Counted from the first letter of the stretch, positions 3,224 to 59,983 are shown. The stretch is DNA of 64,000 nt from Rikenellaceae bacterium (GCA_031547885.1 JAVBRO010000002.1:29886-93885); one strand, 5' to 3'. The notes: generated by a model not told the origin, from the sequence alone. A program made the numbers and translations.

Positions 3224-3241
3224 GGCTTTGCTTTATTATGG

Positions 3242-20700: not shown

Positions 20701-21166
20701 AAAAGAGTTCGCCCACGCGCGCGACGTCAACAAACTCTACGGCGAACAGAACGTTTTCCGCTACCTGCCCCTGCGCGACATGATCCTGCGAGTACAGCCC
20801 GGCGACGCGGCCGAAGCCGTGCAGAAGATAGCTTTCGCCGCACAGCTTTGCGGGACCCCGCTCGATATCAGTGTCGATCCGGCCGATACGCGCGCCGAAG
20901 AGTTCAGGAAAGTGTGCCGCGCCCTCTTCGCCGAACCCGACGCCGGTTTCGCCGGACGCCTGCCGCAGTACGAACGCGCCAGGACGTGCTCGTCCGAAAT
21001 CCCTGCAGAATTCTACGAAGCGGCGGCCGTCAGCGACAAATACATCGCGACGGCGGCTCCATCGGCTGAAGGGCGCGTGGAACTGCTCCATTACATAAAA
21101 GAGCAGAGCATCGCGTGGGAATACCACCGCTACGGCAGCATCACCGAAATACCGGCAGCCGAGTAA
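17723..21166 (+). CDS. putA: Bifunctional proline dehydrogenase / L-glutamate-gamma-semialdehyde dehydrogenase
   Basis: 1147 aa with an N-terminal proline dehydrogenase domain and a C-terminal aldehyde dehydrogenase domain (catalytic Cys context GQKCSACS, Glu motif ETGGKNAIIL). Confidence 0.9.
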   Translation: MKGSNNISINEVQEWVMKLYNESEKRITPAERREQHKYATLVQNKGDKIFLSKMLDESSQIRDDNKLARRIKKLIDRYGVPEFFSPWDKFLLKMYRAVGYRFDFIAIPIIKNRLRKETATVVIDEARPRLTKHLEQRRDERIGQNVNLLGEVVLGNEEADGRYHHYLEALESPDINYISVKISGIYAQTHALNFEESFPELVERMSALYRKAIDFPYKDFDGTLRPKFINMDMEEYKDSHLTMRVFKAALSKPEFKDYQAGIVIQAYLRDAWEFQTELLEFAKQRVASGGAPVKMRLVKGANLEMESVVSSLRGWPNPVYGSKTEVDASYLHILDRALLPENTGAVKVGVASHNLFSIAYAYLASAHNGTLDDVSFEMLEGMANHIWRAQSAIGNRVILYTPVVKNEHFLNAISYLVRRMDENTGPENFLAYSFNLQPGTDAWSFLEKQFVEAYGLKDSLAHGPVRIQDRTKPYAGAAPGEGFRNEPDTDFDLAGNQRWAESIVKKWKKSADDKPYEIPLQIGAEEVATADKAVYKDRCQDDRVTVCEMSRAGVEEIKKIAAIAGADPAGWRKTTLEQRRGILFKAADNLAELRGDLIGCMCAITGKTITEGDVEVSEAIDFTRFYPVSMQEFEDLKGVEVEPKGTVLVISPWNFPCAIPVGGVTSALSGGNTVILKPATVSAPVAWTFAKAFWDAGVPKEALQVVITDRKALEVLNTAPEIKHIILTGGTDTAQMIAKSNPSTPLSAETGGKNAIILTASGDRDHAILNVVASAFGNAGQKCSACSLLLVEGSVYDDPMFRKKLRDATVSLQSGSVWKIGNVVGPMVTNQNDKLLEAIAKLEPGEEWLVEPCFLDEKKYALAPTVKWGVRPENFSFRNELFGPMLSVVRVKNLREAVDLVNGLDYGLTSGLQSLDEEEIAYWKANLEAGNLYINRGVTGAIVNRQPFGGMKLSAFGGGIKAGGPNYTSCFVKFTDKKGSKADFRANYAAAWEKEFAHARDVNKLYGEQNVFRYLPLRDMILRVQPGDAAEAVQKIAFAAQLCGTPLDISVDPADTRAEEFRKVCRALFAEPDAGFAGRLPQYERARTCSSEIPAEFYEAAAVSDKYIATAAPSAEGRVELLHYIKEQSIAWEYHRYGSITEIPAAE

Positions 21167-21186
21167 TCCACCTCCCTCTTTCGGTC

Positions 21187-21222
21187 GACGCCCGCATGTT
21201 TTTCATGTGGGCGTCGCGTTTT
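21187..21222 (+). terminator. Intrinsic terminator after putA
   Basis: GACGCCCGCATG-TTTTT-CATGTGGGCGTC, followed by GCGTTTT. Confidence 0.6.
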
Positions 21223-21312
21223 AGCCCGCACGTTAATTTAATGTTATCTTTGAGTGCGAAAATTGGCGGCAGAAAAGCGAAATCCATATATTTGCCTGTT
21301 AATATAACTTTT

Positions 21313-22611
21313 ATGGAGTGGAAAGAACAATACAAGGATAAGATCGTTTCCGCGGCTGAGGCGGCCGGCGCGATAAACAGCGGCAATTGGGTGGTCTGCT
21401 CGCATGCGGCGACGAATCCGCAGTTCATCATGCGCGAACTGATGGCCCAGAAAGAGCGCTTACACGGTGTGCACATCTTCCACGCGCTGCCGCTCGGATA
21501 CGGCGATTACCTGATGCCCGAAAATTCGGAATATTTCCGCCACATGACCATCTTTGCGGGGGGGGCTTCGCGCCAGGCGATCGCCGAGGGAAAAGCCGAT
21601 TTTCTGCCCACGTTCTTCAAGGATCTTCCCGGACTTATGGGAGACGCCATTCCGGTCGATGTTGCGATTGTAAACGTGTCGCCGCCCGACAGCGAAGGAT
21701 TCTGCAGTTTCGGGCTCGCCTGCGACTACTCGAAAGCTGCAACGGAGAAAGCCCGGATCATAATAGCGCAGGTGAACGAATGCATGCCGCATGTTCTGGG
21801 CGGGCAAAACCTGATACATCTTTCCAGATTCGACTATATAGTGCCGTGTGCCGACCCGGTGCCCGAAATACCACTACCCGAGGTATCTGACGTTGAGCGT
21901 GAAATAGGACGCCACTGCGCCTCGCTCGTCAAAGACGGCGACACGCTCCAATTGGGCATCGGTGCGCTTCCCGACGCGGTCATCATGTTCCTTAAAGACA
22001 AAAAAGACCTGGGACTGCACAGCGAAATGTTCTCCGACGGGGCCATGGGGCTGATGAAATCGGGCGTTATAAACGGCAGCCGCAAAACCCTGCATCCGGG
22101 TAAAGCAGTCGTGACTTTCCTGATCGGGACGCGCGCCCTGTATGATTTCGTAGATGGGAATCCCGGCGTGGAGATGATGCCGGTAAATTATGTGAACGAT
22201 CCCTGGGTTATCGGGCAGAATGACAATATGGTCTCGATAAATTCGTGTATCGAGGTCGATCTGACGGGACAGGTGAACGCCGAAAGCATAGGCCTGAAGC
22301 AGTTTAGCGGCGTCGGCGGGCAAGTGGATTACGTTCGCGGCGCAGCGCTTTCTAAAGGCGGAAGGTCTATTATCGCGATGCCTTCAACGGCGGCCCGCGG
22401 AAAAGCTTCGCGCATAGTGCCTCTGCTGTCGCAGGGGGCAGCTGTGACGACTTCTCGCAACGATGTGGATTACGTGGTGACCGAGTACGGAATTGCGAAA
22501 CTGAAAGGGAAGACGCTTATACAGCGCGCCCAGGCTTTGATCGCGATCGCCCACCCCGATTTCCGCGGCGAACTGACTGATGAATTCAACAGGCGGTTCG
22601 GTCAAAATTAA
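21313..22611 (+). CDS. Acetyl-CoA hydrolase/transferase family protein (4-hydroxybutyrate / succinate CoA-transferase-like)
   Basis: In-frame ATG at 21313 (MEWKEQYKDKIVSAAEAAG) is preceded by a TATATTTG -7-like box. Family motifs are present (GIGALPDAV, ...SGVGGQVDYVRGA). The supplied ORF began further upstream at a non-biological start. Confidence 0.8.
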   Translation: MEWKEQYKDKIVSAAEAAGAINSGNWVVCSHAATNPQFIMRELMAQKERLHGVHIFHALPLGYGDYLMPENSEYFRHMTIFAGGASRQAIAEGKADFLPTFFKDLPGLMGDAIPVDVAIVNVSPPDSEGFCSFGLACDYSKAATEKARIIIAQVNECMPHVLGGQNLIHLSRFDYIVPCADPVPEIPLPEVSDVEREIGRHCASLVKDGDTLQLGIGALPDAVIMFLKDKKDLGLHSEMFSDGAMGLMKSGVINGSRKTLHPGKAVVTFLIGTRALYDFVDGNPGVEMMPVNYVNDPWVIGQNDNMVSINSCIEVDLTGQVNAESIGLKQFSGVGGQVDYVRGAALSKGGRSIIAMPSTAARGKASRIVPLLSQGAAVTTSRNDVDYVVTEYGIAKLKGKTLIQRAQALIAIAHPDFRGELTDEFNRRFGQN

Positions 22612-22704: not shown

Positions 22705-22793
22705 GCCCGGATGGTGGAATCGGTAGACACGCCGGACTTAAAATCCTGTGGGCAGTAATGCCCGTGCCGGTTCGATCCCGGCTCCGGGTACCA
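22705..22793 (+). tRNA. tRNA-Leu (anticodon UAA)
   Basis: Acceptor stem GCCCGGA/TCCGGGT plus ACCA. D-arm TGGTGGAATCGGTAGACACG. Anticodon loop CTTAAAA (anticodon TAA). Long variable arm; T-arm GGTTCGATCCCGG. Confidence 0.85.
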
Positions 22794-22800
22794 TGAAAGC

Positions 22801-22836
22801 AAGGCGCCTTGAAGTCAAATGACTTCAAGGCGCCTT
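22801..22836. terminator. Perfect 16-bp hairpin after tRNA-Leu / before pilus-operon 3' end
   Basis: AAGGCGCCTTGAAGTC-AAAT-GACTTCAAGGCGCCTT, followed by ATTATT. Confidence 0.6.
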
Positions 22837-22877: not shown

Positions 22878-25800
22878 CTATTTAACCACCCCTTTATTGG
22901 CGCCCCAGACATCGTCCCACGGAGCCGGAATTGCCGAATTGTCTATCAGCATGTCAGTGAAGTGGCTTCCGTAGCGCGCCGCGTTGCCTACGTAGTAGAA
23001 CAGGTTGTCGCAGAAAACACTGCGGTTGCCGCTGGTTGCCGTATGGAACATCTCTCCTTCCCCGATATAGATCATCATGTTCGCAGGGTCGATGGCCATC
23101 ATTACCTGGTTCGAGTTATTTGTTTTCACTATTACCGGTACCGCCGTGTCAGGAATAACCGTAGCAACCGTATTGTCGCCGCCGCAATTGAACTCGGAGA
23201 TCGACGCGAGGGTAATAGATGTGCCCCCTTTGGTGGTCAGCAACTGCATGATCCTGGTGTCGGCCACAGCGGGGTTAGCTTTGCCGTTGGTACTGCCGCT
23301 CGGTGAGATAAAATTGTATCCGCGGCCCGAAAATCCATTGTTCATCGCGCTGACGCCGCCCCTGTCATCACCCACGAGCACGGTAATGGCGTCGGTGCTA
23401 CTCATAAATGTATTTACTTTTGACCAGTCGTATCCCGAACTCATATTACGATCACACACATGCATGTATGTAGTGTTCGAAGGGATCGTCGTCGGTGTAT
23501 TGGTGATGGAGAACCCGGGGATCTTCCTCACATTGGTCGCATAGTAATCGAACCAGTTGCCTGTGGCCGAGCCTATCGAGCCCCATCCCGTGCGCAGGTT
23601 GACCGCATATACCCCTTTCGAAGTGAGTGTATTCTGCGTCACGGTAAAGTTCTTCGTTATCTCCGTTCCGACCAGTTTGAGTGTAACCGTGGCCGTAACG
23701 GGGATTTCGCGGTTCGGGTAGTAGACCTTCGGGAAGACCACCTTGAACTTCTGCGACATAGGATACGGTGTGTTTTGGTCGATAGCCATTCCGTTTTCAT
23801 CCGTAAGATAAGCCTTATGGTTAACCAGCGAGTGTCCGTCGGAAGAGGTTGCGGTTCCCATAGCCATCGTTGCCGACCACTGCGTTCCGTCCGCTGTCAC
23901 GGTGATCAGTCCGGTCTCTCCTCCGATGACCGGGATCGGCAGGAATGAGTTCGGCGAGATGTCGATCGTCTGCGACTGTTGTACCAGCAGGATGTCGACG
24001 TATTTACCTTCGTTGCCGACAAGGAAGATGCGGAGTGTGGCCGAACGTACACGGTCGAGAGGATTGGCACCTGCAACGCCGACCGTAACGGAATTGCCGT
24101 TAATATTACCGCTTGTTGTCTTCGAGTATGTGAAGGCGGCGGTATCGTCATTGGCCCCGGACTGCATCAGCTTACAATCCCAAGGTATGACATTATCCCC
24201 GTCCGTCGGGTAAACATTGAACGCGGTGACGGAATTGTTGGCTACATCGGCCAAACCCGTGCCGTCCCCCTTGAAGGTCACGCGGCTCTGCGCGGGCGAT
24301 ATACTGATGCCTCCTGCCGCCCTCTGCGATACCATAACGACCGCGGAGTAGTTTTCGGGATCGCTGTCGAGCGTAACCACCACGAAACCTTCACGTGCGG
24401 CCGGCTCCGTATTGGTCGTATTTGTCCAGATACGGAACTTATTGTCGATCACCAGGCTGCTGCCGCTTGTGACGTTAGTCACGGCATTGGCGAGTCCCTG
24501 GGTAGAGTCGAACGAGAATCCCGGCATATATATCTTGGCCGACCACGGGCCCGAAGCCTCAACGCGGATGAGTCCGGAAGCTACGCCTGCGGTCGAAGCG
24601 AGAGGAAGCAGGCCGCCGTCGGGAAGGTGTACTTTCAGATATGTGTCGGCTTCGCCCGACTGGATTATCGTGACCGAGGCTTCGAGCCCGGCAAATGTGA
24701 GCATCACCACTCCGCGCCTTTCGGTTTCACCCAATCCCAGCGGCGTGGCCTGCACGTTGAGCGTATTCCCGTTGAGCGACGACTGGATGCTTCCGTCGGC
24801 GGGTTCGTATGTCTGGCTTTTTATAGCCAGGGGTGAGAACGACTGCAGGTTGGTGAACGTGTATATGGAGTAGGACGAACCTGTGGTACCGTCGCGCCCG
24901 ATCCTGATGGTCTTGGTCGGCAGGGCCATGATGCTGTTGCCGTCCTGGACGATCAGTCCGTTGTCGTCCAGATCCCAGTTGTTGATCGTGTAATCGAGCG
25001 TGTTGCCCATGCCGGTGTAGGCCAGCTCTTCGGTGGTTTCACCCGCCCCGTTCACGTTGTTTATGGTCACGCGGTAGGCGTTGTTGCGTTTAAGCGACTG
25101 CGCGCTGTTATCCGGGTTGATGTTGACGCGGTAATATGTCGGATCGCCGGTAGAGGCACGGTCCTTCAGTCCGATAATGAGGCAGGTGGTCTCCTTATCG
25201 TTGGTTTTAGGCGCTGCCGAACGGTTTTCAAAAGCATACAATCCTCCGACAACGTCTTTCAGAAAACTTTCCGCACTGCCGTCCGTATTGTCGGAGTTAT
25301 CTATACCGTAGAAACGGCGGATGCGGGATGCGGCGGCTGAATAGTCCTGCGAGCCTTCACCCCATATGGACGAAGTCGGATAGGCATTCCATAAAGAGAC
25401 GGAAACCAGGTCGTAGTTCGCCTTTTTGGTGTTGAGCACGTCGAAACGCGCCACGTTGCGAACCATTGTGAGCTTGATCGTGAACTCATCGGCCTTTTTG
25501 ACCGCCTGACCATTCATCAGAATCGCATCGGGAGTGATAGCTGTGTCGGCCTGCGTATAGGCAAGAGCTTCGGTCATAGCCTGGTATTGGGTCTTTCCCT
25601 GCCACTGCGAGATCCAATAGTTCACACTTTCCCCGAGGTAATCATCCGAAACATTGGCCATCGCCAGGATGTTATATGCGCCGGTGATGCTCAGTTGGGT
25701 CCCCCCAAGGTCGACAGCGAGATCGGAGTTCATGGCCAGCGGGCCGGTGATCTCCACGCCTTCGATGAACATTCCGCCATTGTAGGGATCGGCCTCGAAA

Positions 25801-26009
25801 AAGAGCAGGAAAAGATTACTCAACTGGTCCTCCCCCTCCTCCGGAGATACCGAGGCCCTGGTCCGGGTTTCGGTATCGATACCCTTCACACTTACCGACA
25901 CGCTCAGCGTGGTCGGAATATTCTTCCTGCCACCCGCAACAGGATCCTTTATACAAGATCCGAACAGCAGTCCTGCTGCCGCCGCGATTGTTATCAGAAT
26001 TCGTTTCAT
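22878..26009 (-). CDS. Large (1043 aa) lipoprotein, distal gene of type V pilus operon (putative tip/accessory adhesin)
   Basis: Lipoprotein signal MKRILITIAAAAGLLFGSC. Low-complexity S/T/N/G-rich beta-rich sequence. Last gene of the DUF3575-DUF3868-fimbrillin operon. Confidence 0.5.
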   Translation of the reverse strand: MKRILITIAAAAGLLFGSCIKDPVAGGRKNIPTTLSVSVSVKGIDTETRTRASVSPEEGEDQLSNLFLLFFEADPYNGGMFIEGVEITGPLAMNSDLAVDLGGTQLSITGAYNILAMANVSDDYLGESVNYWISQWQGKTQYQAMTEALAYTQADTAITPDAILMNGQAVKKADEFTIKLTMVRNVARFDVLNTKKANYDLVSVSLWNAYPTSSIWGEGSQDYSAAASRIRRFYGIDNSDNTDGSAESFLKDVVGGLYAFENRSAAPKTNDKETTCLIIGLKDRASTGDPTYYRVNINPDNSAQSLKRNNAYRVTINNVNGAGETTEELAYTGMGNTLDYTINNWDLDDNGLIVQDGNSIMALPTKTIRIGRDGTTGSSYSIYTFTNLQSFSPLAIKSQTYEPADGSIQSSLNGNTLNVQATPLGLGETERRGVVMLTFAGLEASVTIIQSGEADTYLKVHLPDGGLLPLASTAGVASGLIRVEASGPWSAKIYMPGFSFDSTQGLANAVTNVTSGSSLVIDNKFRIWTNTTNTEPAAREGFVVVTLDSDPENYSAVVMVSQRAAGGISISPAQSRVTFKGDGTGLADVANNSVTAFNVYPTDGDNVIPWDCKLMQSGANDDTAAFTYSKTTSGNINGNSVTVGVAGANPLDRVRSATLRIFLVGNEGKYVDILLVQQSQTIDISPNSFLPIPVIGGETGLITVTADGTQWSATMAMGTATSSDGHSLVNHKAYLTDENGMAIDQNTPYPMSQKFKVVFPKVYYPNREIPVTATVTLKLVGTEITKNFTVTQNTLTSKGVYAVNLRTGWGSIGSATGNWFDYYATNVRKIPGFSITNTPTTIPSNTTYMHVCDRNMSSGYDWSKVNTFMSSTDAITVLVGDDRGGVSAMNNGFSGRGYNFISPSGSTNGKANPAVADTRIMQLLTTKGGTSITLASISEFNCGGDNTVATVIPDTAVPVIVKTNNSNQVMMAIDPANMMIYIGEGEMFHTATSGNRSVFCDNLFYYVGNAARYGSHFTDMLIDNSAIPAPWDDVWGANKGVVK

Positions 26010-26037
26010 TTTTATATTGTTTTAATCTTAATATTCT

Positions 26038-27456
26038 CTACAAGTCTTTGATCAATCCGCCGCCGTCATCCCAATCATCCGGGGAATTAGACCTCTGGAT
26101 GATCGAGATATCGAAGCGGATCCGGCCTGCCGTTACGGTCAGTGTCGACGGGTTGCTGTCCAAGCCGTATGAAACGAGTGCGGTGAAATTGAAAAAGTTA
26201 TTACTGCCTTCGGTTTTGATCTCCGCTTTGAACCTGTCGTTGGCGATAGCCGTTTTGTCGGCCGGGTCGGGGAAATCTCCCCCGTTATCGAGCTCCATCG
26301 AGAATTGGTCCAACGGAATGTTTGTCCTGAACACGATCCTGTCGTCGGAACCCGCATCGCGGTAGACTACAGCCGTGCGGTCGTCGCGCCGTTCGTTGCG
26401 GTCGCGCCGGAGCATGACGTACTGCATGCCGTCGATAAAGATACCGCCGTCCATCTCTTCGTCCCACGGAACGACGTCGTAATCTATGTTGACAGGCTCC
26501 GCATTCTTCGCTTCGTCGAACGAAGGATAGCCGTCGCCGTTTACCTTGGTGATAACGACGATATATTTGTTATTGCGCACGACGGGGCTTTTAACCATTT
26601 CACCGTCGGCATTTTTGCTGCGCAGCGCTATAGGGTACCATGTCGGCTGCCCACTGCTTCCCGTATTGTTCCACTGTCCTTTAAGTACCAGTTTGGTCGA
26701 TCTGTTCAGACTCGCGGACGACGGGGCGTCGTTTTCGTACATGTAGAAAATGTCCTCCACACAGTTGTTGTCCGCGGGCAGAACGGTATGGGTCCAGTCT
26801 GCGGTCAGGTCGCTGTTCATGTTGTCGGGCACCTGCGGGATCCCGGCTCTGGAAGGATCGAACGGCAGAAATCCGCGGTCGGCGGCATAGCAGAGCGAAG
26901 CCTCCTGGAGTGTAAAATCATCGTCCTCTACCGTTATGTCTGTCGAAGCCACCGAACGAAGCAACGCGACTGTTCCCAGGTCGTTCACCGCCTTGTCTGC
27001 CACGGTGCATCCGCGGATGCTTCCCCACATGGGAAGCCCCATGGCACCGATATCTGCTCCCGGATCATTAAGCACCATCAGTTTTGCGGCATCGGCGTAT
27101 TCCTTCCCTTCAAGCGCGAGGTCTTTCAGGGTTTCATGCGCATTGACGGCAAAGTATATGTCGAGATTATCGCCTATCGCGAGGTTTGTGCGCCATCTTC
27201 CGTCGGAAACCTTCCACGCATAGCGCGTGTAGAGATAGACCGACTTGTCCGTCTCGGTCGGATATGCTGCCTGGCGTCGGAAGACGAGGACGTCCAGTTG
27301 GTTTATGGCGGTATCGTCCACAGCTCTTGTGGAGGATGAAACGTCGAAGCGGAATTCGACCTGTTTCCCGGCCTTTCCTCCGCCGATATCATTGTCCCGG
27401 GCGCATGAGGCTGCCAGGAACACGATACAGATTAACTGCAGAAGTATTTTGTTCAT
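26038..27456 (-). CDS. FimA/Mfa1-family fimbrillin-like lipoprotein
   Basis: Lipoprotein signal MNKILLQLICIVFLAASCA. LDVLVFRRQ and IYFAVNAHE motifs characteristic of Bacteroidales fimbrillins. Confidence 0.55.
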   Translation of the reverse strand: MNKILLQLICIVFLAASCARDNDIGGGKAGKQVEFRFDVSSSTRAVDDTAINQLDVLVFRRQAAYPTETDKSVYLYTRYAWKVSDGRWRTNLAIGDNLDIYFAVNAHETLKDLALEGKEYADAAKLMVLNDPGADIGAMGLPMWGSIRGCTVADKAVNDLGTVALLRSVASTDITVEDDDFTLQEASLCYAADRGFLPFDPSRAGIPQVPDNMNSDLTADWTHTVLPADNNCVEDIFYMYENDAPSSASLNRSTKLVLKGQWNNTGSSGQPTWYPIALRSKNADGEMVKSPVVRNNKYIVVITKVNGDGYPSFDEAKNAEPVNIDYDVVPWDEEMDGGIFIDGMQYVMLRRDRNERRDDRTAVVYRDAGSDDRIVFRTNIPLDQFSMELDNGGDFPDPADKTAIANDRFKAEIKTEGSNNFFNFTALVSYGLDSNPSTLTVTAGRIRFDISIIQRSNSPDDWDDGGGLIKDL

Positions 27457-27489
27457 GATCTTATTGGTTTAATTATTGCCCCGCAAGTC

Positions 27490-28401
27490 TTATATAGTAT
27501 TGTCAATGGAGATGTTCCGCCTCCATCCATCCACGATAACCGTGAAAAAATTATTGCCCATCACATATTCGAAGACTATGAGTCCTCCCGCCCATGCCCC
27601 CCGGGGAAGGTTGTCCTTCGGGACGGAGAGTGTTGCATAGACGTTTTGTATGGTCCTGACATCGACGCTGATGGTTTTATCGGCGGCGGAAGGCATGACG
27701 CCGAAACGGCCGGTGGCGTAATGCGTATGGTCGTCCGAAGTGTCGTTCAGTTGCGCGACCACATTGGCTTCTTCACCGAATCCCCGGAATTCCATATCCA
27801 TCTTCGACATCACTCCCTTCACAACGGCATAATTCTGCACCCCGGGTTCATAGATAATCTTTCCCCAGTCGATCACGTAAACTTCGACACGGCATGCGGC
27901 GTAGATCATTCCGATCCGGTGGTGCGACGATTGATTATACGATTCCGTAAAGGCCGACCGTCCCAGATAGAGTTCGTGGGGGACCGAACTGTAATAGCTG
28001 TTGTATTGGGTGGTGAGCTCTTCGGAGATCAGCTCTTCGTCGAGCATCTCGCCATACTCCCACTCAGGTATGTTCTCTTCTGGATTAGCGATCGGAACGG
28101 CCCATGCCACCAGGTCGATATCGCCGTTCATTTCCTGCGTTTTGCGCACCGTGCATGACTTACCGTTACTTATCTGTGAATAGGGGATCCGTATGCCTTT
28201 GATCAATTTTTTATCGCGGAACACATACAGTTGCACGTCGTTGCCGATCCTGGTGTCGTAGGTGCCCGGGACATATATGTCTTCGAGATAGAACGACAGT
28301 GTCATATCTGCGGGGCAGTCGTCCATGCCTTCGCGCAGACAGCCCCAGAGCCCAAGGCAGAGTGATACAGCCAGGTATATGATTGCTTTTTTCACGTTCA
28401 T
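27490..28401 (-). CDS. FimB/Mfa2-family fimbrial anchor-like lipoprotein
   Basis: 303 aa with a lipoprotein signal and LYVFRDKKLIKG. Size and position after the major subunit are typical of the Mfa2 anchor. Confidence 0.55.
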   Translation of the reverse strand: MNVKKAIIYLAVSLCLGLWGCLREGMDDCPADMTLSFYLEDIYVPGTYDTRIGNDVQLYVFRDKKLIKGIRIPYSQISNGKSCTVRKTQEMNGDIDLVAWAVPIANPEENIPEWEYGEMLDEELISEELTTQYNSYYSSVPHELYLGRSAFTESYNQSSHHRIGMIYAACRVEVYVIDWGKIIYEPGVQNYAVVKGVMSKMDMEFRGFGEEANVVAQLNDTSDDHTHYATGRFGVMPSAADKTISVDVRTIQNVYATLSVPKDNLPRGAWAGGLIVFEYVMGNNFFTVIVDGWRRNISIDNTI

Positions 28402-28496
28402 CTCGTTTAAGTCGTTTTTTTAAATACCGGGGCGGGAATCCTGGGGGGGGCCTCGCCCCGGCGGGAATTACTATAGAAAAAAACTTAGGCTTACAT

Positions 28497-29774
28497 TTAC
28501 ATTTCGTCCTGATAGAAGTTGATGCGCCACTTCTTGACGTTCAGCTCGATCGTGATGGCCGATTCGTCGACGCCGGGGATTATTTCGGGGGTGGTTTCGG
28601 CATCTTTCGGAGTGCCCTGGCCCGGAGTGGCGATAGCCGTGATGTTAATATGGTACGATGCGTTGCGCATGACGTGGTAGTTGTCGTCGCGGACTATGTC
28701 TACCCTCCAGTAACGGATCTTGTTCATATCGTTGGTGTTGGCGGTATCGCCGTCCACGACCAGTTCGCCTTTAATTATGAAGGCATACGTTGCGAGGGGA
28801 TCGAAACCTGTCTGTCCTTCGGGAGTGGTCTTCAGGAAAGGCTTGTTTTCATAGACATAGACGCGGTCCTGTGCGTTCGACGTATCGTTGAAGTTCAGGA
28901 AGAAGTCGCCGGCAGCGTCATAGCCCGAATAGTTGCTGGTATAATAGCCGTCAGCATCGAATTCGGAATTGAGATGCTGCCTTGCGCCGTCCGACCATTT
29001 GTCCCAGGGCACGTCCTTCGGGGTGGTGTCGTCTTCATCGTCGTTACCTGTAAAGAACAGGCCCGACAGGTCCATGCCGTTGACCACCACGTAGCCGAGC
29101 GGATTGAACGTGAGGTCGGCGTTGGTGATGTCGGTGTCTTCTCCCCACAGCTTCTGGATATGGCTGTCGCTGAGTTTCAGTTCGACGGGAGTGGTTTCGT
29201 CTTTCATGAAGGTCGGCGGGTTGATCTTGCTGACAAGGCGCAGGAGATCTATGGATACCGTATTGGCAGTGCTGTTGGCAATGACGATCGCCTCTTTTTC
29301 GCCCGACATTTCAAAGCCGTCGGCTCCCGGGGTCGTGCGGGAATTGGCTTTCGTGAAAGCCGAGTTCGACATTTTGGCTTTCAGTTCGTCGTAGCCTTCG
29401 CCCGATGCGAGCGGACCCATGTCCATGTTGGTGAGGGCCACGAACTGGCGGGCACCCGAACCCACGATCACCAGCTTCGAGAGCTGGCCGTCGGTGAACT
29501 TGATGTAGCCGTTCCCCGTGCCTACCAGCGGATCGATGTCGCCGTCGGCGTCGAATACATAGAATTCCACCATGTTCACGGCGTTTTCGGCGGGCTCGCC
29601 GTTCTCTTCAGTGTTGTCCAGGGCGCGGGTTCCGGCGTTGAATTTCAACGAAAGACGTACTTGAGTCGGAACGCTCGCCTCTTTCCCGTCTTTCGACTGT
29701 TTGTTGTCGTCCTTTGCACAGGCGCTTACGAGGCCGGCAAGTGCGATAACTAAAAAATACCTGTAAATTTTCAT
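28497..29774 (-). CDS. Mfa1/FimA-family major fimbrillin-like lipoprotein
   Basis: Lipoprotein signal MKIYRYFLVIALAGLVSAC. An Arg/Lys site follows the pro-region (NAGTR). MVEFYVFDADG motif. Confidence 0.55.
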   Translation of the reverse strand: MKIYRYFLVIALAGLVSACAKDDNKQSKDGKEASVPTQVRLSLKFNAGTRALDNTEENGEPAENAVNMVEFYVFDADGDIDPLVGTGNGYIKFTDGQLSKLVIVGSGARQFVALTNMDMGPLASGEGYDELKAKMSNSAFTKANSRTTPGADGFEMSGEKEAIVIANSTANTVSIDLLRLVSKINPPTFMKDETTPVELKLSDSHIQKLWGEDTDITNADLTFNPLGYVVVNGMDLSGLFFTGNDDEDDTTPKDVPWDKWSDGARQHLNSEFDADGYYTSNYSGYDAAGDFFLNFNDTSNAQDRVYVYENKPFLKTTPEGQTGFDPLATYAFIIKGELVVDGDTANTNDMNKIRYWRVDIVRDDNYHVMRNASYHINITAIATPGQGTPKDAETTPEIIPGVDESAITIELNVKKWRINFYQDEM

Positions 29775-29832
29775 AATCGTAAATTTTTAATGAATAGATA
29801 GAGTTGTTATTCGGTTATGGTTATAATGGTTT

Positions 29833-31251
29833 TTATTCTTCGACCAGCCGTACCATACGTGTTTGCTCGAGATTGACGACCGCATCGGTGTCGCCGTTCG
29901 CCGCGGCTTTTTTGAACCAGTTGTCCGCCTTGTCGTAATCGCCCTGCATCATGCAGCAGACGCCGAGGGCATTCCACGTGATAGGATCGTTGCTGTGGGG
30001 TTTGAGCAACTGAAGGGCTTCTCCGAACTTCCGTTCGCTCATCAGGTCTATCGAGCGGTTGATGTCCGTTACAGCGCGGTTTTCAGGCGAATCGGGATCT
30101 ATCCATGTGGTGCGCCCGCGGGAGTCCGTGACAGCCGTTGCGACGGTGGCCCTGCGGTCGATCTGGTAGTAGACCTGCACGTATCCGCCGCTGCGCAGTT
30201 CCGGGAAGAAATTATCGAGCATATATCTGTATGGTCCGCCGCCGGAATATTTCATAAGCCGCGTTTTGCGTATCTCCTGCTCCATCGTGTAGGAGTCGAT
30301 AATGGAGAGTATATCATTTTTTCCGCCTTCCGGTACGTCCGAGTTCACCACCATTTCGCGCAGCCCGTCCCAATCCTCGCGCCCGTTGTAGAGTTCGAAA
30401 ATATCGTCACCTCTGTTCACCAGCGGTCTGAGGTAATTCCTGACGGCTTCGGCGCGCTGCTGAGCCAGACGGGTGTTCAATGCAAGCGGCCCTTCCGGCG
30501 AGGCGTATCCGGCGATAACGATCTTTTTCAGGACGGCATTGGGATCGCTGCGAATCAGTTCCAGCGCCCGGACTATGGATTCAAGAACCTCACTATTGCC
30601 TTTGAATCCGGGGTCGATGACCGCGGAGCCGGCTTTGAAGGTCAGTTTCGACGTGCCTTTCCCACGTTCATTCGACAGAATGTCGTAACGTCGAGAATAA
30701 TCCTCAGCCGGGTGCAGGAACGGATTGTCAAGATCGTATTTCTCAAGTTCTGTAAGATTATAATCGAGTTTTTCACGCGAATACGCCGGTGTCGGATTGA
30801 AATACAGCAGTTTGTCTTCCACCGCGCGTGATTCGGAATCGTATCGGCAGCAGCAATCCTCGCCCGACTGGCGTACGGATAACGATACCGTCTGCATCCA
30901 ATCTTCGAACGGGATGACAGTCGCGTAAGCGACAAGTTCCCTGCCCCTTGAGACCTTGATATATCCATCCGTACCGAGGCCTTTACGCAGGTCCGACAGG
31001 CGCTTATTGCGTTTTGAGAGGGTTACCGGTTCGAGGGATTTCGAACGGCCGGCATCGTTGTAAAGCACCGGAATGAATTCTGCTTTATAATTTTTCGGAA
31101 AGCCCTGCGGGTCTATCGTGAAGTTCACGACCACCTGATCGCCCGATTTGCGTACCGCAGCGTCGCTTACAGCGGAACCGTATTGAGGTTTCGTCCCGAA
31201 CGCGCTCAGACAAAGCATCATAAGAGGCAGTATGAGATATATCTTTTTCAT
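29833..31251 (-). CDS. DUF3868-like N-terminal domain plus C-terminal OmpA-family peptidoglycan-binding domain protein
   Basis: OmpA motif IVIAGYASPEGPLALNTRLAQQRAEAVRNYL. Positioned after the DUF3575 gene, as in Bacteroides fimbrial loci. Confidence 0.7.
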   Translation of the reverse strand: MKKIYLILPLMMLCLSAFGTKPQYGSAVSDAAVRKSGDQVVVNFTIDPQGFPKNYKAEFIPVLYNDAGRSKSLEPVTLSKRNKRLSDLRKGLGTDGYIKVSRGRELVAYATVIPFEDWMQTVSLSVRQSGEDCCCRYDSESRAVEDKLLYFNPTPAYSREKLDYNLTELEKYDLDNPFLHPAEDYSRRYDILSNERGKGTSKLTFKAGSAVIDPGFKGNSEVLESIVRALELIRSDPNAVLKKIVIAGYASPEGPLALNTRLAQQRAEAVRNYLRPLVNRGDDIFELYNGREDWDGLREMVVNSDVPEGGKNDILSIIDSYTMEQEIRKTRLMKYSGGGPYRYMLDNFFPELRSGGYVQVYYQIDRRATVATAVTDSRGRTTWIDPDSPENRAVTDINRSIDLMSERKFGEALQLLKPHSNDPITWNALGVCCMMQGDYDKADNWFKKAAANGDTDAVVNLEQTRMVRLVEE

Positions 31252-31257
31252 GATGTA

Positions 31258-31998
31258 CTATTTGATAAGATAGACCAATGTTATTCCCGCGCTGGTGGGA
31301 CCGAAATAGTTGCGCTGCCGGCCTACGCCGGCGCTTTCGCCGCAGTGGGGACAGTCGTAGCGGTCGTAGCGCATGTAGCCGTATCCCACCCCGATGGTGA
31401 ATTCGATGTTCCATTTGCGGTTGAGCATCAGGCCGTAGCCGTAGGAGAAGCCCACCCCTGCCATCCAGCCGTCGTAGCGGTATTCTTTCGAGCCTTTGCC
31501 GAACATCAGCGGCATCTCATGTTCTGAAATGTTATACTTTGTGTAGAGCAGGTGCCCGCCTATGAAATGGCCGTTGAAACGTTCGCAGAACCAGTGACGG
31601 TATTCGCCCTGAACGAGCCAGTGGGCCAGTTTCCGGTTGTCCTCGGCACTCCCGTTAAGGTTCCAGCCGTTGTATCCGGCCCCAAGGGCGAGGGTGCTGC
31701 GGCGTCCTAGTCCCGCTTCGAGCCCGAGGTTGGGAGCTAAAGCCAGCCCGCCGTAAAGCAGGTTGGTCTTTATGGCGAACTTCATCGGGGTGCCGGTAAG
31801 AACAGCCTTGCTGCCTGATAAGGAATGTTGGAGATCGATTTGCGGCGAACTAACCGAACCTGCCGCTTCGCTTAGGGGTCGAGCGCTCATCCCCACATCT
31901 GTCTGTCCCCGCAGCCCCGATACTGGACACAGTATCAGCAACGACAGCAAGACTGTATATATGACTTTTGAATTCATGCCTCTGTTATTAATATTCAT
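31258..31998 (-). CDS. DUF3575-like outer membrane protein (first structural gene of type V pilus locus)
   Basis: 246 aa with a signal peptide and Gly/aromatic-rich beta-barrel-like sequence. The start overlaps the upstream small ORF's stop (ATGA). Confidence 0.6.
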   Translation of the reverse strand: MNINNRGMNSKVIYTVLLSLLILCPVSGLRGQTDVGMSARPLSEAAGSVSSPQIDLQHSLSGSKAVLTGTPMKFAIKTNLLYGGLALAPNLGLEAGLGRRSTLALGAGYNGWNLNGSAEDNRKLAHWLVQGEYRHWFCERFNGHFIGGHLLYTKYNISEHEMPLMFGKGSKEYRYDGWMAGVGFSYGYGLMLNRKWNIEFTIGVGYGYMRYDRYDCPHCGESAGVGRQRNYFGPTSAGITLVYLIK

Positions 31999-32270
31999 TC
32001 CTTTTGTTTCCTTCGCTCTTCAGCCAGTGTGGCGCGCACGCTTTCCAGTGAAAGATATTTCCCGAACGGATAGACATCCTCATATTTCGTAAAGCTGTCC
32101 CAAATCTTTTCAAGAGCTTTGGCAACATCCTCGCGCTCGCTGTTCCTTATCAGCCACCGTTGTACATCCTCGACTATATCTCCTGGCAGCGACCTCTTAG
32201 AGAAATAAGGGAACAGTATAATCTCTATAAAGCTCTCAGGTATTCCCGGTTTTAGTTCATTTTTTTTCAT
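31995..32270 (-). CDS. Small hypothetical protein leading the pilus operon (start uncertain)
   Basis: About 91 aa from MKKNELKP. Translationally coupled (ATGA overlap) to the DUF3575 gene. No recognisable motif. Confidence 0.35.
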   Translation of the reverse strand: MKKNELKPGIPESFIEIILFPYFSKRSLPGDIVEDVQRWLIRNSEREDVAKALEKIWDSFTKYEDVYPFGKYLSLESVRATLAEERRKQKE

Positions 32271-32324
32271 ACGCCCACCTCTGATCAGATTGCTAATCCG
32301 GCGATTGTTAGACTGACGGTGCAA

Positions 32325-32455
32325 AAATATGGGGGGGCGTTATAAAGATTTTATTAAAAGAGGGATATGTGATATAAAGATTTCATAAAAATGACATCCC
32401 CTTGTGTTATACATATATAAAAATGTCCTAATTTTGATTTGGTAAAAGGAGGCTA
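32325..32455. promoter_or_regulatory. AT-rich divergent promoter region between the pilus operon and the KdpD-like kinase gene
   Basis: TAATTTTG (-7-like, Bacteroidota consensus TAnnTTTG) about 25 nt upstream of the ATG at 32456. AT-rich on both sides. Confidence 0.35.
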
Positions 32456-34474
32456 ATGAAAACCCAAAGGAAAAACAAGAAAAAACCGGACGACGAGCCC
32501 GCCTTTCGAGAGCGTGCCGCACCAGTTGCGTCAGAGCATCCCAACGGGAATCGAGCCGCAGACAGCGAACATATTCTCGCAGTGCTGGTTCCGGGCATGA
32601 ATTGCCGGAAAGTGATACTGCGAGCGCAGAAGCTGGCTGCCGGAGGTTCGGGATGGAGCGTCATTTACACCAAGGATCCCTCTTCATGGAAGAACAACGT
32701 GCTGCTCGCGCAGGATCTGGAACTTGCACGGCGCCTCGGAGCCGACATAAAGGCTTTTCCCGGAAGCAGGCCGGTACAGGCATGTGCCGAAGCCGCCCGG
32801 AGAGAGAAGGCCGGCGTGATAGTGGTCGGACACAGAAAAGGGCTCATGCGCTACTTCGGCGACATCCGCCGCTTGCACAAACTTGCGACGTTGTGTCCTG
32901 AAACGGAGATATCCGTCGTGCCGGCAAATACATGGGATAAAGACCGGAAATGGCCCTCAGTTGAGCCCCTCCCGCAATACGTACGCAAACATGACCGCCT
33001 TCGGGTTTTTGCAACTATCGTGTTGTCCGCCATTGCAATAGCTGCACTCTGTACATTGATGCTGGGCCGCGAGGGCGCACAGTACGCTGCAACAGGCATC
33101 CTGTTGATTTTGCTCTATGTGATCGCGGCGACAGGAAGGGGAACCATATTATTCTTCGTGCTGCTTTCAGCTGTCGTTTTTACGGTCATGCTGATCTCCC
33201 CCTATTTTTCATTACAGTTGCATAATTTCAAAGAGGACCTCTTCTTTATTCTGTGCTTCTTCGCTATCGTCATTGCCAATGGACTGTTGGCACTCAGATA
33301 TCAAAAACATCGCAGGGAGATAGAGCGTCAAGCCCGCCACGCCAATGCGTTGTTCGAAACGGCGCGCAGGCTAGCTAATGCGACCGATATTGATTATGTG
33401 ATAAATGCAAGCATGCAGGAGATACATAAACACATCTCCCTGAATGTATTTTTCATCTTTCAGGACGGCAAGGGAAATCTGACCAACCGTAAATTTGTCC
33501 CTAAAGAATCAATTCTAACTGCGGATGACATGGAAGCCGCCCGCTGCGCTTTTAAACACAATCGCCAAACGGGGCGTTTTACTTCTCACTGCAGTTCGTC
33601 CCGCTATACATTCGACCCTCTCAATGCACCGACGCGTCGGTTGGGTGTTGTTGTAACGGAACTGAACCGGCAACCCGATGCGGATGCGGTTGTTTTCCGC
33701 GACGAAATGTTCGAGCAGATCGCTCGTACGCTGGAATTCCATCTCGTGCAACGTCAGGCGAGAGACGCCAAATTGCTGAAAGAGTCGGGAGAGCTTTACA
33801 AGACGCTGTTCAAATCCATTTCGCATGAACTGAGAAGTCCCCTGTCGGCAATTGTAGGGGCTTCGGATATCCTGCTTTCCAAGCCCCACGCCGATGCTAC
33901 CGACCGTGAACTTTGCGTGGTGATAATGAAGGCTTCGGAACGGCTCGATAAAGTGATCGAGAATCTGCTCAATATGTCGCGCCTCGAATCGGGACATATA
34001 GCGGCCGATCCCGTTCCGTGCGACGTCTATGACCTTTTGGCGAGTGTTGCCAACAATTTGTCCACGGAGCTCTCGGCTTTCGACTTCCATATTCGAATGC
34101 ACGCCCCGGTTCCTATTGTGGAACTCGACTTCGGATTGACGGAACAGGCGCTCTATAACCTCGTGTACAATTCCACTCAGCATGCGCCTGCGGGAACGGC
34201 GATCACCCTCGAAGCCTCGTATGCGGATGGTTGGATCGAACTTGTGGAAACCGACAGCGGGTCTGGTTTCGACGAAAGCTCCCTGACACATGTGTTCGAT
34301 AAGTTCTGGCGCAAAAAAAACAGCAAGCCCGGAGGCCTGGGACTCGGCCTGTCGATAGTAAAAGGCTTTGTAGAAGCCCAGGAAGGTACGGTTGCAGTCG
34401 CCAACAGAACGGAAGGCGGGGTACGCTTCACGATCAGGATCCCGGTTAAAACCGTAAATACACCCGAAGTATGA
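32456..34474 (+). CDS. Sensor histidine kinase, KdpD C-terminal-half type (Usp domain - 4 TM - GAF - HisKA - HATPase), lacking the KdpD N-terminal sensor domain
   Basis: Usp-like region (ILAVLVPGMNCRKVILRAQKLA...VIVVGHRKG), then 4 TM helices. H-box SHELRSPLSAI; N-box/G-boxes (DSGSGFDESSL, GGLGLGLSIVKG). Confidence 0.75.
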   Translation: MKTQRKNKKKPDDEPAFRERAAPVASEHPNGNRAADSEHILAVLVPGMNCRKVILRAQKLAAGGSGWSVIYTKDPSSWKNNVLLAQDLELARRLGADIKAFPGSRPVQACAEAARREKAGVIVVGHRKGLMRYFGDIRRLHKLATLCPETEISVVPANTWDKDRKWPSVEPLPQYVRKHDRLRVFATIVLSAIAIAALCTLMLGREGAQYAATGILLILLYVIAATGRGTILFFVLLSAVVFTVMLISPYFSLQLHNFKEDLFFILCFFAIVIANGLLALRYQKHRREIERQARHANALFETARRLANATDIDYVINASMQEIHKHISLNVFFIFQDGKGNLTNRKFVPKESILTADDMEAARCAFKHNRQTGRFTSHCSSSRYTFDPLNAPTRRLGVVVTELNRQPDADAVVFRDEMFEQIARTLEFHLVQRQARDAKLLKESGELYKTLFKSISHELRSPLSAIVGASDILLSKPHADATDRELCVVIMKASERLDKVIENLLNMSRLESGHIAADPVPCDVYDLLASVANNLSTELSAFDFHIRMHAPVPIVELDFGLTEQALYNLVYNSTQHAPAGTAITLEASYADGWIELVETDSGSGFDESSLTHVFDKFWRKKNSKPGGLGLGLSIVKGFVEAQEGTVAVANRTEGGVRFTIRIPVKTVNTPEV

Positions 34475-35154
34475 ATGACACACTGATACTCATCGTAGAC
34501 GATGAACCGGCCATCCGCCGGCTGCTTGTAATAGCCCTGCAGACGGAAGGATATAAGACAATAGAGGCTGCTACCGGAGAGGAGGCCCTGGCCATGACTG
34601 CGTCGTACAATCCGGCCATGGTCCTGCTCGACCTGGGGCTGCCGGGAATAGACGGCAAAGAAGTGCTGAACCGTCTGCGAGAATGGTATGCCCGGCCGAT
34701 AATGATCCTGTCTGTCCGCAATTCGGAAGAGGATATAGTGGTAGCCCTGGACAGCGGTGCAAACGACTATCTTACAAAGCCTTTCCGCGTCCGGGAACTG
34801 CAGGCGCGGATTCGGCTTTCACTACGGAAGCATGGAGAAACAGATTCAGACCCGGTGATCGATGTGGGTAATTTGAGCATTGACCTGGCTAACCGCATCG
34901 TCCGCAAGAGTGGCGAAATACTCCGCTTTACATCCACCGAATTTGCCATGCTGTCGCTGTTTGCCCGCAACCGCGGCCGCGTGCTTACACATCAATATAT
35001 CATAAGGGAGGTATGGGGCGATCTGGTTTATGCCGACCAGAGCCAGAATCTGCGTGTATTCATAGCTAGTCTGCGTAAAAAAATAGAGCCTGATCCGTCG
35101 GAGCCCACTCTGCTGCTTACCGAATCGAGGATCGGCTACCGGTTCGGGTTGTGA
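34471..35154 (+). CDS. OmpR-family response regulator, KdpE-like
   Basis: Receiver domain (LIVDDEP...LLDLGLPG.DG) plus a winged-helix trans_reg_C domain (LTHQYIIREVWG...LRVFIASLRKKIE). 4-nt overlap with the kinase gene. Confidence 0.85.
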   Translation: MNDTLILIVDDEPAIRRLLVIALQTEGYKTIEAATGEEALAMTASYNPAMVLLDLGLPGIDGKEVLNRLREWYARPIMILSVRNSEEDIVVALDSGANDYLTKPFRVRELQARIRLSLRKHGETDSDPVIDVGNLSIDLANRIVRKSGEILRFTSTEFAMLSLFARNRGRVLTHQYIIREVWGDLVYADQSQNLRVFIASLRKKIEPDPSEPTLLLTESRIGYRFGL

Positions 35155-50200: not shown

Positions 50201-50554
50201 TCAGACGGAACTTACTCCAACAACACAACCATCATATCCGATATCGTCGGTTATTACACCGACGCGGTATGGCTCAACAGGAATACAGAAAACAATATTC
50301 ACAGCACTTCGTTCCTCAAGTTCAAAGAGCTGCGCGTAGACTACTCGCTCCCGGCCCGCTGGATCACCCAAACGAAAATCTTTCAGGGTATTTCGGTCGG
50401 TTTCTTCGTCACCAACGTCTTCTGCTGGACCAAATTCCCGCAGTATGACCCGGAAGTGGCATCGCTCGACAACGGCTCTATAAGCCGCGGTATCGAGAGC
50501 GGTGCATACCCGATGACACGTACATACGGCATGAATTTTAAACTTACGTTCTAA
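47207..50554 (+). CDS. SusC/RagA-family TonB-linked outer membrane transporter
   Basis: Signal peptide, CarbopepD_reg-like N-domain (VTGTVYESDGKTPMAGVMVRV), TonB box region (EIVVTALGI) and plug (NPDDIESISVLKGPAATALYGSRAGNGAIVITTK). A 1115-aa barrel ending KLTF. Confidence 0.9.
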   Translation: MQSMKSNISILLKAALSLCFTFACIQAWGQAKSVTGTVYESDGKTPMAGVMVRVVDTNTIEVTSAEGKFSIRVPNNEASLSFTMMGYETKTIQVGVQSLVNMTMEESTTQISEIVVTALGITREEKSLGYAVTKVGEDVITSTVSSNWLNSLSGKVAGLNFDGASSGPSGSMRVTLRGEGSLKHDANEALFVIDGIPIGNPKVTSGSSSYGDLEAPVDYGNNIGDLNPDDIESISVLKGPAATALYGSRAGNGAIVITTKSGRKTKGIGITVNSSIVFEQAGFWPDLQYEYGAGNGSMSVEDGLQQFYYSFKNIPNPRDTSDGGTTIGRKQSRYAWGPKYEGQMFYQYNGYDWNTGLWKATPWQAKDWYTGFFKTGVTYANSISIDGSSGKGNSFRLSVKDQRNTWIIPNTGYNSQTVSFSFSNEASKYVRVTAKATYLRKNSDNLPPTGYSQASPLYAIIYNVASEDISKYKAEYFDGRIQWAHKGMADNPNNIAAYGELLINNASGARSENAYWLAYDNTNSLDRDRVYGNVQAEADITKWLTLQFRSGIDFSDDFRTQRKPQYSYGYAYGWYREQTNTFYEMNNDFLLTYNDRFDKIGLTVNASFGGNNMVANNRFIRDTAEELKVPNIYMISNARTKATPINERSNKSVNSLYGVLSLGWKDMVYLDVTGRNDWSSTLAPENWSFFYPSVSASVLLEEVFKLRQKTPWIDMLKLRASWANVGNDTDPYGIYASYSNSVFSGGQRLADQMPYYNILPENVESLEFGMEAKFLKNRISFDLAWYHSKTTNQSIPFQTGWLTGAEYQLVNAGRVDNRGVEISGRFQPIRTKDITWTISAAWAKNWNKLVALTSQSDIWQLNSSNTVSNSIFIYAFTGQELGRIYGFGYERAPQGAYYLDAQGKTVDCSGQTILDASSGQPYVDTSDLRDLGSIFPDWQGSISTSFSWKDLSVNATFTGQMGGKAYSVTNQSLSMQGKVKSTLEGRYDGLMLQGVNRNSDGTYSNNTTIISDIVGYYTDAVWLNRNTENNIHSTSFLKFKELRVDYSLPARWITQTKIFQGISVGFFVTNVFCWTKFPQYDPEVASLDNGSISRGIESGAYPMTRTYGMNFKLTF

Positions 50555-50575
50555 CCGCTAAAGATTGACAGAGAT

Positions 50576-54386: not shown

Positions 54387-54399
54387 AACCGGAATTATC

Positions 54400-59978: not shown

Positions 59979-59983
59979 ACCCG

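Follow-up and report, generated by a model that had tools for sequence, protein, structure and literature searches.

We analysed a 64,000-nucleotide stretch of DNA from Rikenellaceae bacterium (GCA_031547885.1, JAVBRO010000002.1:29886-93885), referred to here as the window, and found that a 1043-residue lipoprotein encoded at its positions 22878..26009 (minus strand, stop codon included) is likely to be the terminal tip adhesin of a type V pilus and to carry a new head domain. The gene is the last of seven co-directional, head-to-tail open reading frames (ORFs) that run on the minus strand from 32324/32270 to 22878 with intergenic spacings of -4 to 95 nt, in the order small ORF, DUF3575 protein, OmpA/TPR protein, stalk pilin, Mfa2-type anchor, 472-residue accessory pilin and 1043-residue lipoprotein. 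Judged by its gene sequences, this locus is an ordinary chromosomal Bacteroidales type V (FimA/Mfa-class) pilus operon of a Rikenellaceae-like host. An earlier note on this DNA had given the same ORF coordinates and gene order and had recognised a type V pilus operon; both hold, with every ORF on the minus strand and with Pfam and NCBIfam matches for the stalk, anchor and accessory pilins. It had also put the 1043-residue protein forward as a candidate tip adhesin, a proposal that gains support from the pilin fold, the conserved lipobox and Arg site, and the linkage to pilus genes described below.

Domain architecture of the 1043-residue protein

An AlphaFold model of the protein, built on 68 relatives, reached a mean predicted local distance difference test score (pLDDT) of 89.5, and 688 residues scored at least 90. 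This structure prediction, which the earlier note had proposed as a check, yielded a pilin fold followed by immunoglobulin (Ig)-like domains. The chain begins with a signal peptide and lipobox (residues 1-19, LFGS-C19; 25953..26009, minus strand) reading MKRILITIAAAAGLLFGS-C19, the cysteine being invariant in alignments A2 and A4 and kept in at least 90% of A1. It is followed by a pilin module (residues 20-345; 24975..25952, minus strand) comprising an anchor strand at 34-41, a floppy loop at 46-52 that holds T50-R51-A52 and has a pLDDT below 50, and a double beta-sandwich that is all-beta from 60 to 345 and ends at the invariant W345. Beyond this the model contains four all-beta blocks, read as Ig-like beta-sandwich domains of about 105-115 residues each (residues 350-452, 455-563, 565-678 and 680-793; 23631..24962, minus strand), and a C-terminal alpha/beta head (residues 798-1043; 22881..23618, minus strand) with a class-I glutamine-amidotransferase (GATase1)-like, GIFT/ThuA-like fold that lacks the catalytic triad.

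Structurally, the tip pilin BovFim1C and the accessory pilin Mfa3 rank amongst its best matches; scores were 17.8 for 4gpv_B (a putative cell adhesion protein), 16.8 for 5nf4_B (Mfa3), 16.0 for 6jzk_A (FimA), 15.6 for 5nf3_A (Mfa1), 14.3 for 5dhm_D (Mfa4) and 11.0 for 5nfi_B (Mfa2). A Foldseek search with the whole model returned strings of Ig and cadherin domains, and hhalign pairs Ig2, Ig3 and Ig4 with one another as homologous repeats (probability 72-96%). At the level of sequence, the NCBIfam model FimD_tip_adhes covers residues 1-348 (E = 3.5e-15, below its curated cutoff), so that the earlier description of the protein as having no recognisable domain needs amending. Tested domain by domain against Pfam at E ≤ 10, the protein gave only weak matches to BACON (E = 0.057) and Fimbrillin_C (E = 0.11), and its C-terminal ~700 residues match no Pfam family; amongst 44 family members, Pfam returned sub-threshold Fimbrillin_C in 14, BACON in 12 and P_gingi_FimA in 10. 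As a profile of alignment A1 searched against PDB sequences found nothing besides a signal-peptide match, sequence alone gives no link from the family to solved pilins.

The C-terminal head

Modelled separately, residues 793-1043 gave a pLDDT of 95.5 and a predicted template modelling (TM) score of 0.93. Foldseek matched this model to the glutaminase domain of GMP synthase (E = 1e-6, TM score 0.5-0.6) as well as to Wbp1, GH42 and IFT52, and the matches to the fold also cover gamma-glutamyl peptidases. Across the family, D974 and F1017 are the sole invariant head positions, G810, G1014 and N1002 are kept in at least 94% of members, and H850, H1016 and S1015 in 69-76%; no column holds cysteine in 50% or more of members, and no Cys-His-Glu triad is found. 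Pfam matched nothing in the head at E ≤ 10, and nothing in the heads of 44 members at E ≤ 0.1. The GIFT profile (Pfam ABC_transp_aux, GldG-IFT52-OST48) did not match either, and the likeness to GIFT domains lies at the level of the fold only.

From its conserved residues we judge that the head is not a catalytic amidotransferase. Because the Cys-His-Glu triad is absent, we read the modelled domain as most likely serving for binding, perhaps of a glycan; GIFT-type domains have been suggested, though not shown, to bind sugars (PMC7226087). In the literature searched we found no paper that links a GATase1/GIFT-like head fold to type V pili.

Distribution and synteny of related loci

A search of 5.8 billion clustered proteins identified 78 relatives of the tip protein, nearly all of 1000-1200 residues, none of which has a Pfam domain; every one that bears a name is called 'hypothetical'. 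When the head alone was searched with phmmer (HMMER) against 1.84 billion representatives, it recovered 123 proteins that belong almost exclusively to the tip family. Most of these matches are the C-termini of 1000-1200-residue proteins or short, fragment-like proteins, and a few consist of multiple stretches and appear spurious. The named sources comprise Rikenellaceae, Alistipes, Odoribacteraceae, 'Bacteroides sp.' and Bacteroidales metagenome-assembled genomes (MAGs), along with one contig labelled termite gut metagenome. The isolate labels Lab288, Emb289 and OttesenSCG amongst the relatives point to termite guts as well.

Using an alignment of the 12 closest sequences, a search for related loci returned nine genome loci. 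Twelve loci show the genes upstream of the large gene, namely seven of these nine, four metagenomic or MAG contigs, and the single known contig identical to the window, from Logan (L001); L005 and L006, which begin at the large gene, were left out of this count, and L011 appears to repeat part of L010. In all 12 the order is stalk, anchor, a pilin of ~470-560 residues, and the large gene. The earlier note would have taken it as a refutation if the protein were found elsewhere unlinked to pili and lacked pilin folds; given the pilin fold in the model and the linkage in every locus that shows upstream genes, this test does not refute the proposal. The closest relative is the Rikenellaceae MAG L002, with 62% identity between its tip protein and that of the window.

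The large gene is duplicated in tandem in three of the four contigs and in most genome loci (L004, 6686-13309; L007, 6596-13252; L008, 5273-13486; L009, 9944-16533; L010, 402-6847 and 10979-17423; L013, 9001-15451; L014, 5473-12609). These copies are old paralogues, with 21-51% identity per domain, and in all pairs but one Ig3, Ig4 and the head are the most diverged domains. Family-wide, identity to the protein studied here is highest in the C-terminal domain of the pilin module and in Ig1 (~50%) and lowest in Ig3, Ig4 and the head (~30%). The exceptional pair is that of L004, whose heads are 75% identical and whose remaining parts are 43-50% identical; this likeness could reflect gene conversion or a constraint imposed by a shared ligand. 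L010 contains two separate cassettes, each with its own tandem tip pair.

Proposed maturation and place in the fibre

Type V prepilins are matured by an Arg-specific protease that removes the anchor strand, after which the C-terminal strand of a neighbouring subunit enters (PMC13655056). Set against the classification of type V tip pilins by Xu et al. 2016, as summarised in PMC13655056 and PMC11601372, the 1043-residue protein has a lipoprotein signal peptide with a lipobox cysteine and, in the predicted model, an anchor strand followed by a loop with an Arg/Lys protease site and a double beta-sandwich type V pilin fold; stalk and anchor pilins are encoded in the same operon, both in the window and in the 12 related loci. 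Near residue 50 the tip family conserves a T-R-[A/G/S] motif with xxPExGE after it, T50 being nearly invariant in A1 and R51 invariant in A2, and the motif's position in a floppy loop directly past the first strand is the layout of a type V prepilin. The stalk pilin (GTR-A) and the 472-residue pilin (STR-A) carry the same cleavage-type motif. The stalk and anchor pilins of the window and of related loci finish ~10-15 residues past the last strand of the pilin domain; the tip chain runs on past W345 into Ig1, and in the model its last 250 residues form a compact head with the C-terminus packed inside. As the chain continues and its C-terminus is buried, the protein looks able to accept a strand and not to donate one, and so looks like a terminal subunit.

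From gene content, model folds, motifs and operon linkage we infer the proteolytic maturation, the order of assembly, the adhesive role and the nature of the ligand. All four pilins would be made as lipoproteins and, after export, an Arg-specific protease would cut off the anchor strand after the Arg of T-R-A, opening a groove that accepts the C-terminal strand of the next subunit. With a complete pilin module, a putatively cleavable anchor strand and apparently no free C-terminal donor strand, the 1043-residue protein would be the distal-most subunit, its Ig-like domains serving as a spacer that projects the head. The 472-residue FimD-like pilin would join this tip to a stalk of 425-residue subunits, and the 303-residue Mfa2-type lipoprotein would end and anchor the fibre.

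The proposed adaptor, the 472-residue FimC/FimD-like accessory pilin (26038..27456, minus strand), matches FimD_tip_adhes over residues 4-353 (E = 1e-16) and Fimbrillin_C (E = 8e-4), and is paralogous to the C-terminal domain of the tip's pilin module (BLASTP E = 5e-8). In each of the 12 related loci its orthologue immediately precedes the tip gene, and a tail of the form [IV]xQ-x6-DWxDGG-x5-D[LF] ends 12 of 12 orthologues (window tail, 26038-26080; L002-L014). This type of motif may be a donor or junction strand. Similar motifs, WDLDDNGLIV and WDEEMDGGIFI, follow the pilin module within both distal proteins. An Ig-like reading of the adaptor's C-terminal ~120 residues was dropped, as hhalign against the tip Ig profiles gave a probability of only 1-21%.

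Alternative readings

Several points weigh against the tip-adhesin assignment and the assembly proposed for it. The structural evidence consists of predicted models throughout, and the pilus, its cleavage and its binding are predicted. In the anchor pilin, too, the equivalent residue is Arg (YDTR-IGN), so that escape of this pilin from cleavage is not evident from its sequence. The FimD model covers just the N-terminal half of the tip protein, at a score below the curated cutoff. The adaptor tail, DWDDGGGLIKDL, is short, rather polar and not very hydrophobic for a donor strand, which makes the putative plugging of the 472-residue protein into the tip the least secure step. Finally, the sugar binding of GIFT-like domains, to which a glycan ligand would appeal, is itself just a proposal (PMC7226087).

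The 1043-residue protein might instead be a stand-alone surface adhesin, co-transcribed with the pilus genes and held in the outer membrane by its lipid without being polymerised. We consider this unlikely, since the T-R-A motif past the anchor strand is conserved family-wide, the gene lies strictly after stalk, anchor and accessory pilins in 12 of 12 loci that show upstream genes, and the best structural matches include a tip pilin, BovFim1C, and an accessory pilin, Mfa3. A different role for the head, as an enzyme carried on the pilus (a GATase1-superfamily hydrolase such as an amidase or a gamma-glutamyl hydrolase), would accommodate the fold matches to GMP-synthase glutaminase domains and gamma-glutamyl peptidases, the invariant D974 and the frequent retention of H850, H1016 and S1015; with no Cys-His-Glu triad in the family, we hold such a function to be very doubtful. 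The reading we prefer is that of a terminal tip adhesin with a binding head.

A wider reading, which we offer tentatively as a real possibility, is that the family constitutes an undescribed class of tip adhesin, in which a ~110-kDa pilin carries a four-Ig spacer and a non-catalytic GATase1/GIFT-like head, and which is limited to ~100 Bacteroidales sequence clusters, with several identifiable members from termite hindguts and often with two ancient tandem paralogues. An extracellular adhesive role of the head, such as binding to glycans of plants or of the host or to gut-protist surfaces, would then be a first for a GIFT-like domain.

Gene content of the operon

The remaining genes of the operon lie upstream of the two distal ones. 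The stalk, or major, pilin (425 residues; 28497..29774, minus strand) matches P_gingi_FimA (E = 5e-9) and Fimbrillin_C (E = 3e-8), both above the gathering score, and scores 82 bits with NCBIfam Mfa1_fam, short of the 130-bit cutoff; its sequence reads as having a lipobox, LVSAC, and the GTR-A motif near residue 50. The anchor pilin (303 residues; 27490..28401, minus strand) is an Mfa2/FimB-type lipoprotein that matches PF08842 (Mfa2) above the gathering score (E = 5e-11). Towards the 5' end are a DUF3575 outer-membrane beta-barrel protein (246 residues; 31258..31998, minus strand; PF12099, E = 3e-59) and an OmpA-like peptidoglycan-binding protein with C-terminal TPR repeats (472 residues; 29833..31251, minus strand; OmpA, E = 1.6e-6; TPR_2, E = 5e-6). 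The earlier note had called the latter a DUF3868/OmpA gene; the OmpA part stands, and DUF3868 was undetected by Pfam in the window's protein even at E ≤ 1. The orthologue in L003 does have a detectable DUF3868 (E = 5e-10), and we class the OmpA/TPR protein as a divergent member of the DUF3868-OmpA group.

Following the stalk gene, a 95-nt gap (28402-28496, minus strand) contains a GC-rich hairpin, CCGGGGCG...CGCCCCGG, set between a U-run and an A-run, with a fold energy of -26 kcal/mol and a z of only -2.2. This hairpin could, on weak evidence, reduce expression of the downstream accessory genes; given its z and the lack of a U-tract, we do not claim it as an attenuator.

Leader ORF and putative regulation

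The small leader ORF (31995..32270, minus strand) overlaps the DUF3575 start by 4 nt. It had earlier been begun at a TTG at 32324, and most likely begins at ATG 32270 to give 91 residues, which is also the gene call of the identical Logan contig. Its product resembles the N-terminus of FecR, with 36% identity over 53 residues to residues 7-58 of a FecR in L003 (BLASTP pairwise E = 8e-7). In L003 that protein is a full-length FecR/FecR_C anti-sigma factor in the same position as the 91-residue ORF, and an extracytoplasmic function (ECF) sigma factor precedes it. This suggests that some type V pilus operons may be under ECF/FecR/outer-membrane-transducer-style control, and that the window may hold a truncated remnant of such a system. 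L012 likewise has an upstream ECF sigma factor, and the DUF3575 proteins of L003 and L012 are ~335 residues long with an N-terminal extension of ~150 residues (ECF/FecR/DUF3575 regions at L003:326-964, 1410-2459 and 2495-3502, and at L012:2061-2654 and 2836-3846). An STN domain in this extension was not established, the match being at E = 0.03 in one of the two.

The sequence TAnnTTTG is an established Bacteroides promoter consensus. A regular-expression scan for it over 32250-32470 gave one match per strand. On the minus strand, a Bacteroidetes-type -7 box, TATTTTTG, at 32322..32329 lies ~50 nt upstream of ATG 32270 and is a putative promoter element of the operon. A TAATTTTG box at 32429 stands beside a divergent two-component system (32456..35154, plus strand), which by Pfam consists of a KdpD-C-like histidine kinase, with DUF4118, weak GAF, HisKA and HATPase domains, and an OmpR-type response regulator (34471-35154). 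In L002, where the outer flanks differ, the kinase is 58% and the response regulator 76% identical and the pair is syntenic with the operon. This shows that the two genes keep company with the operon, and they are candidates for its regulation.

The tRNA-Leu gene and the operon boundary

The 3' end of the operon faces a convergent tRNA-Leu(UAA) gene (22705..22793, plus strand; ARAGORN), a neighbour that lies outside the system, and between the tRNA and the tip stop codon is a perfect 16-bp stem with a 4-nt loop (AAGGCGCCTTGAAGTC-aaat-GACTTCAAGGCGCCTT; 22801..22836), both as the earlier note had reported. The hairpin folds with -30.2 kcal/mol on the plus strand and -37.2 kcal/mol on the minus strand (z of -7.6 and -8.9, with none of 200 shuffles as stable), and it is probably a bidirectional terminator shared by the convergent tRNA and tip genes.

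The possibility had also been raised that the operon is a tRNA-linked island. Horizontal acquisition by integration at tRNA-Leu would be in keeping with the adjoining tRNA, with the patchy distribution of the tip family across Bacteroidales, and with the limits of synteny in L002, which extends through response regulator, histidine kinase and operon, from 35154 to the tip stop codon at 22878, both outer flanks being unrelated. At just 62% identity to L002, however, differing flanks are expected from ordinary rearrangement. A search of the window for a partial tRNA-Leu repeat, which the earlier note had suggested, gave no second copy of the tRNA 3' end with as many as 3 mismatches allowed, and direct repeats within 20-38 kb were limited to chance-level 18-25-mers. 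The GC content of the operon (0.52-0.57) is the same as that of its neighbours, and no tRNA occurs in any of the eight related loci scanned. No integrase, transposase or conjugation gene was found amongst the ORFs scanned from 1.6 to 62.9 kb, which are housekeeping and polysaccharide-utilisation genes and include AlkZ, a TonB-dependent receptor, a patatin/Omp85 protein, Rho, KdsB, MiaA, PutA, an acetyl-CoA hydrolase, BACON lipoproteins, an SPFH protein, a SusC/SusD locus, and a type II secretion-like ATPase and secretin. That no integrase or repeat of the tRNA 3' end is to be seen, as the note itself had remarked, is confirmed for the ORFs scanned and for the window, respectively, and we regard a tRNA-integrated island as highly improbable.

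Other genes in the window

Several BACON-domain lipoproteins occur, two beside a SusC/SusD pair and one just past the two-component system (36672-38300, minus strand; 52131-57072 and 47207-52105, plus strand), an ordinary polysaccharide-utilisation context. The window's far end (58554-61903, plus strand) encodes a T2SSE-family secretion ATPase (E = 2e-124) and, after it, a secretin that has STN and Secretin_N domains; this is a cluster like those for type II secretion or type IV pili. The acetyl-CoA hydrolase/transferase ORF (21115-22611, plus strand), called from a GTG start, overlaps the end of putA (17723-21166) by 52 nt; as its Pfam domains begin at residue 70, the true start is probably an internal Met near residue 68 (MEWKEQYK...).

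Implications

The chief adhesive fibres of Bacteroidales are type V pili, and only a very few of these have a known tip ligand. The locus described here offers a clean, conserved four-gene cassette of stalk, anchor, adaptor and tip, and its confidently modelled, unannotated head makes the tip protein well suited to the founding of a new Pfam or NCBIfam family, as well as to structural and glycan-array studies. Should the wider reading be true, the proposal that GIFT domains bind sugars would become testable on a soluble bacterial domain. A likely mis-annotation is also corrected, the tip protein being 'hypothetical' in every source that names it. These results should be of use for annotation and for the adhesin biology of termite and gut Bacteroidales; they leave the understanding of the type V pilus mechanism as it was.

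Comparison with known systems

The locus would work like the Fim and Mfa pili of P. gingivalis and the type V pili of Bacteroides. Its order of stalk, anchor, 472-residue and 1043-residue genes mirrors fimA-fimB-fimC-fimD of P. gingivalis, although it has no equivalent of fimE and does have DUF3575 and OmpA genes upstream. Both distal proteins match the first ~340-358 positions of FimD_tip_adhes (NF052322, 664 positions), scoring 56-61 bits against the equivalog cutoff of 170 bits and leaving the C-terminal half of the model unmatched; with 55.8 bits over positions 1-340, the tip protein is by sequence comparison a carrier of a FimD-like pilin module and not a FimD orthologue.

Compared with Bacteroides type V tip pilins such as BovFim1C (BACOVA_01548, PDB 4jrf) and with BfrT and BthT, tip adhesins diversified by a DGR, the tip protein is 2-3 times longer, has four Ig-like spacers where those have no or one connecting domain, and ends in a GATase1/GIFT-like head where those have a C-type-lectin or beta-rich one. 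It also extends the plan of BfrT and BthT, in which a pilin N-terminal domain is followed by a connector and a globular head. The nearest folds to that head are the non-catalytic GIFT-type domains (IFT52 N-domain, OST48/Wbp1, GldG, the GH42 trimerisation domain and ThuA-like proteins), to which it has no sequence relationship detectable with Pfam at E ≤ 10 or by phmmer over the 1.84 billion representatives.

The earlier note had placed the distal gene at three times the size of typical Mfa3-5 pilins, overlooking the length of the FimD model and that of Mfa5, which at 1228 residues sets a precedent for a large distal fimbrial gene and in which a stalk of IgG-like domains holds out a binding domain of alpha/beta (Rossmann-like) fold (PMC7835359). 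Mfa5 lacks a type V pilin fold, bears a von Willebrand factor A (vWF-A) domain with a metal-ion-dependent adhesion site and an isopeptide bond, and uses a C-terminal domain for its export through the type IX system. Neither vWA nor Por_Secre_tail (the type IX C-terminal domain) was matched by Pfam or NCBIfam in the tip protein or in 44 family members, and the tip protein is by contrast a lipoprotein with a pilin module. The two share a very large distal component, an Ig stalk and an alpha/beta domain, a design at which they appear to have arrived convergently.

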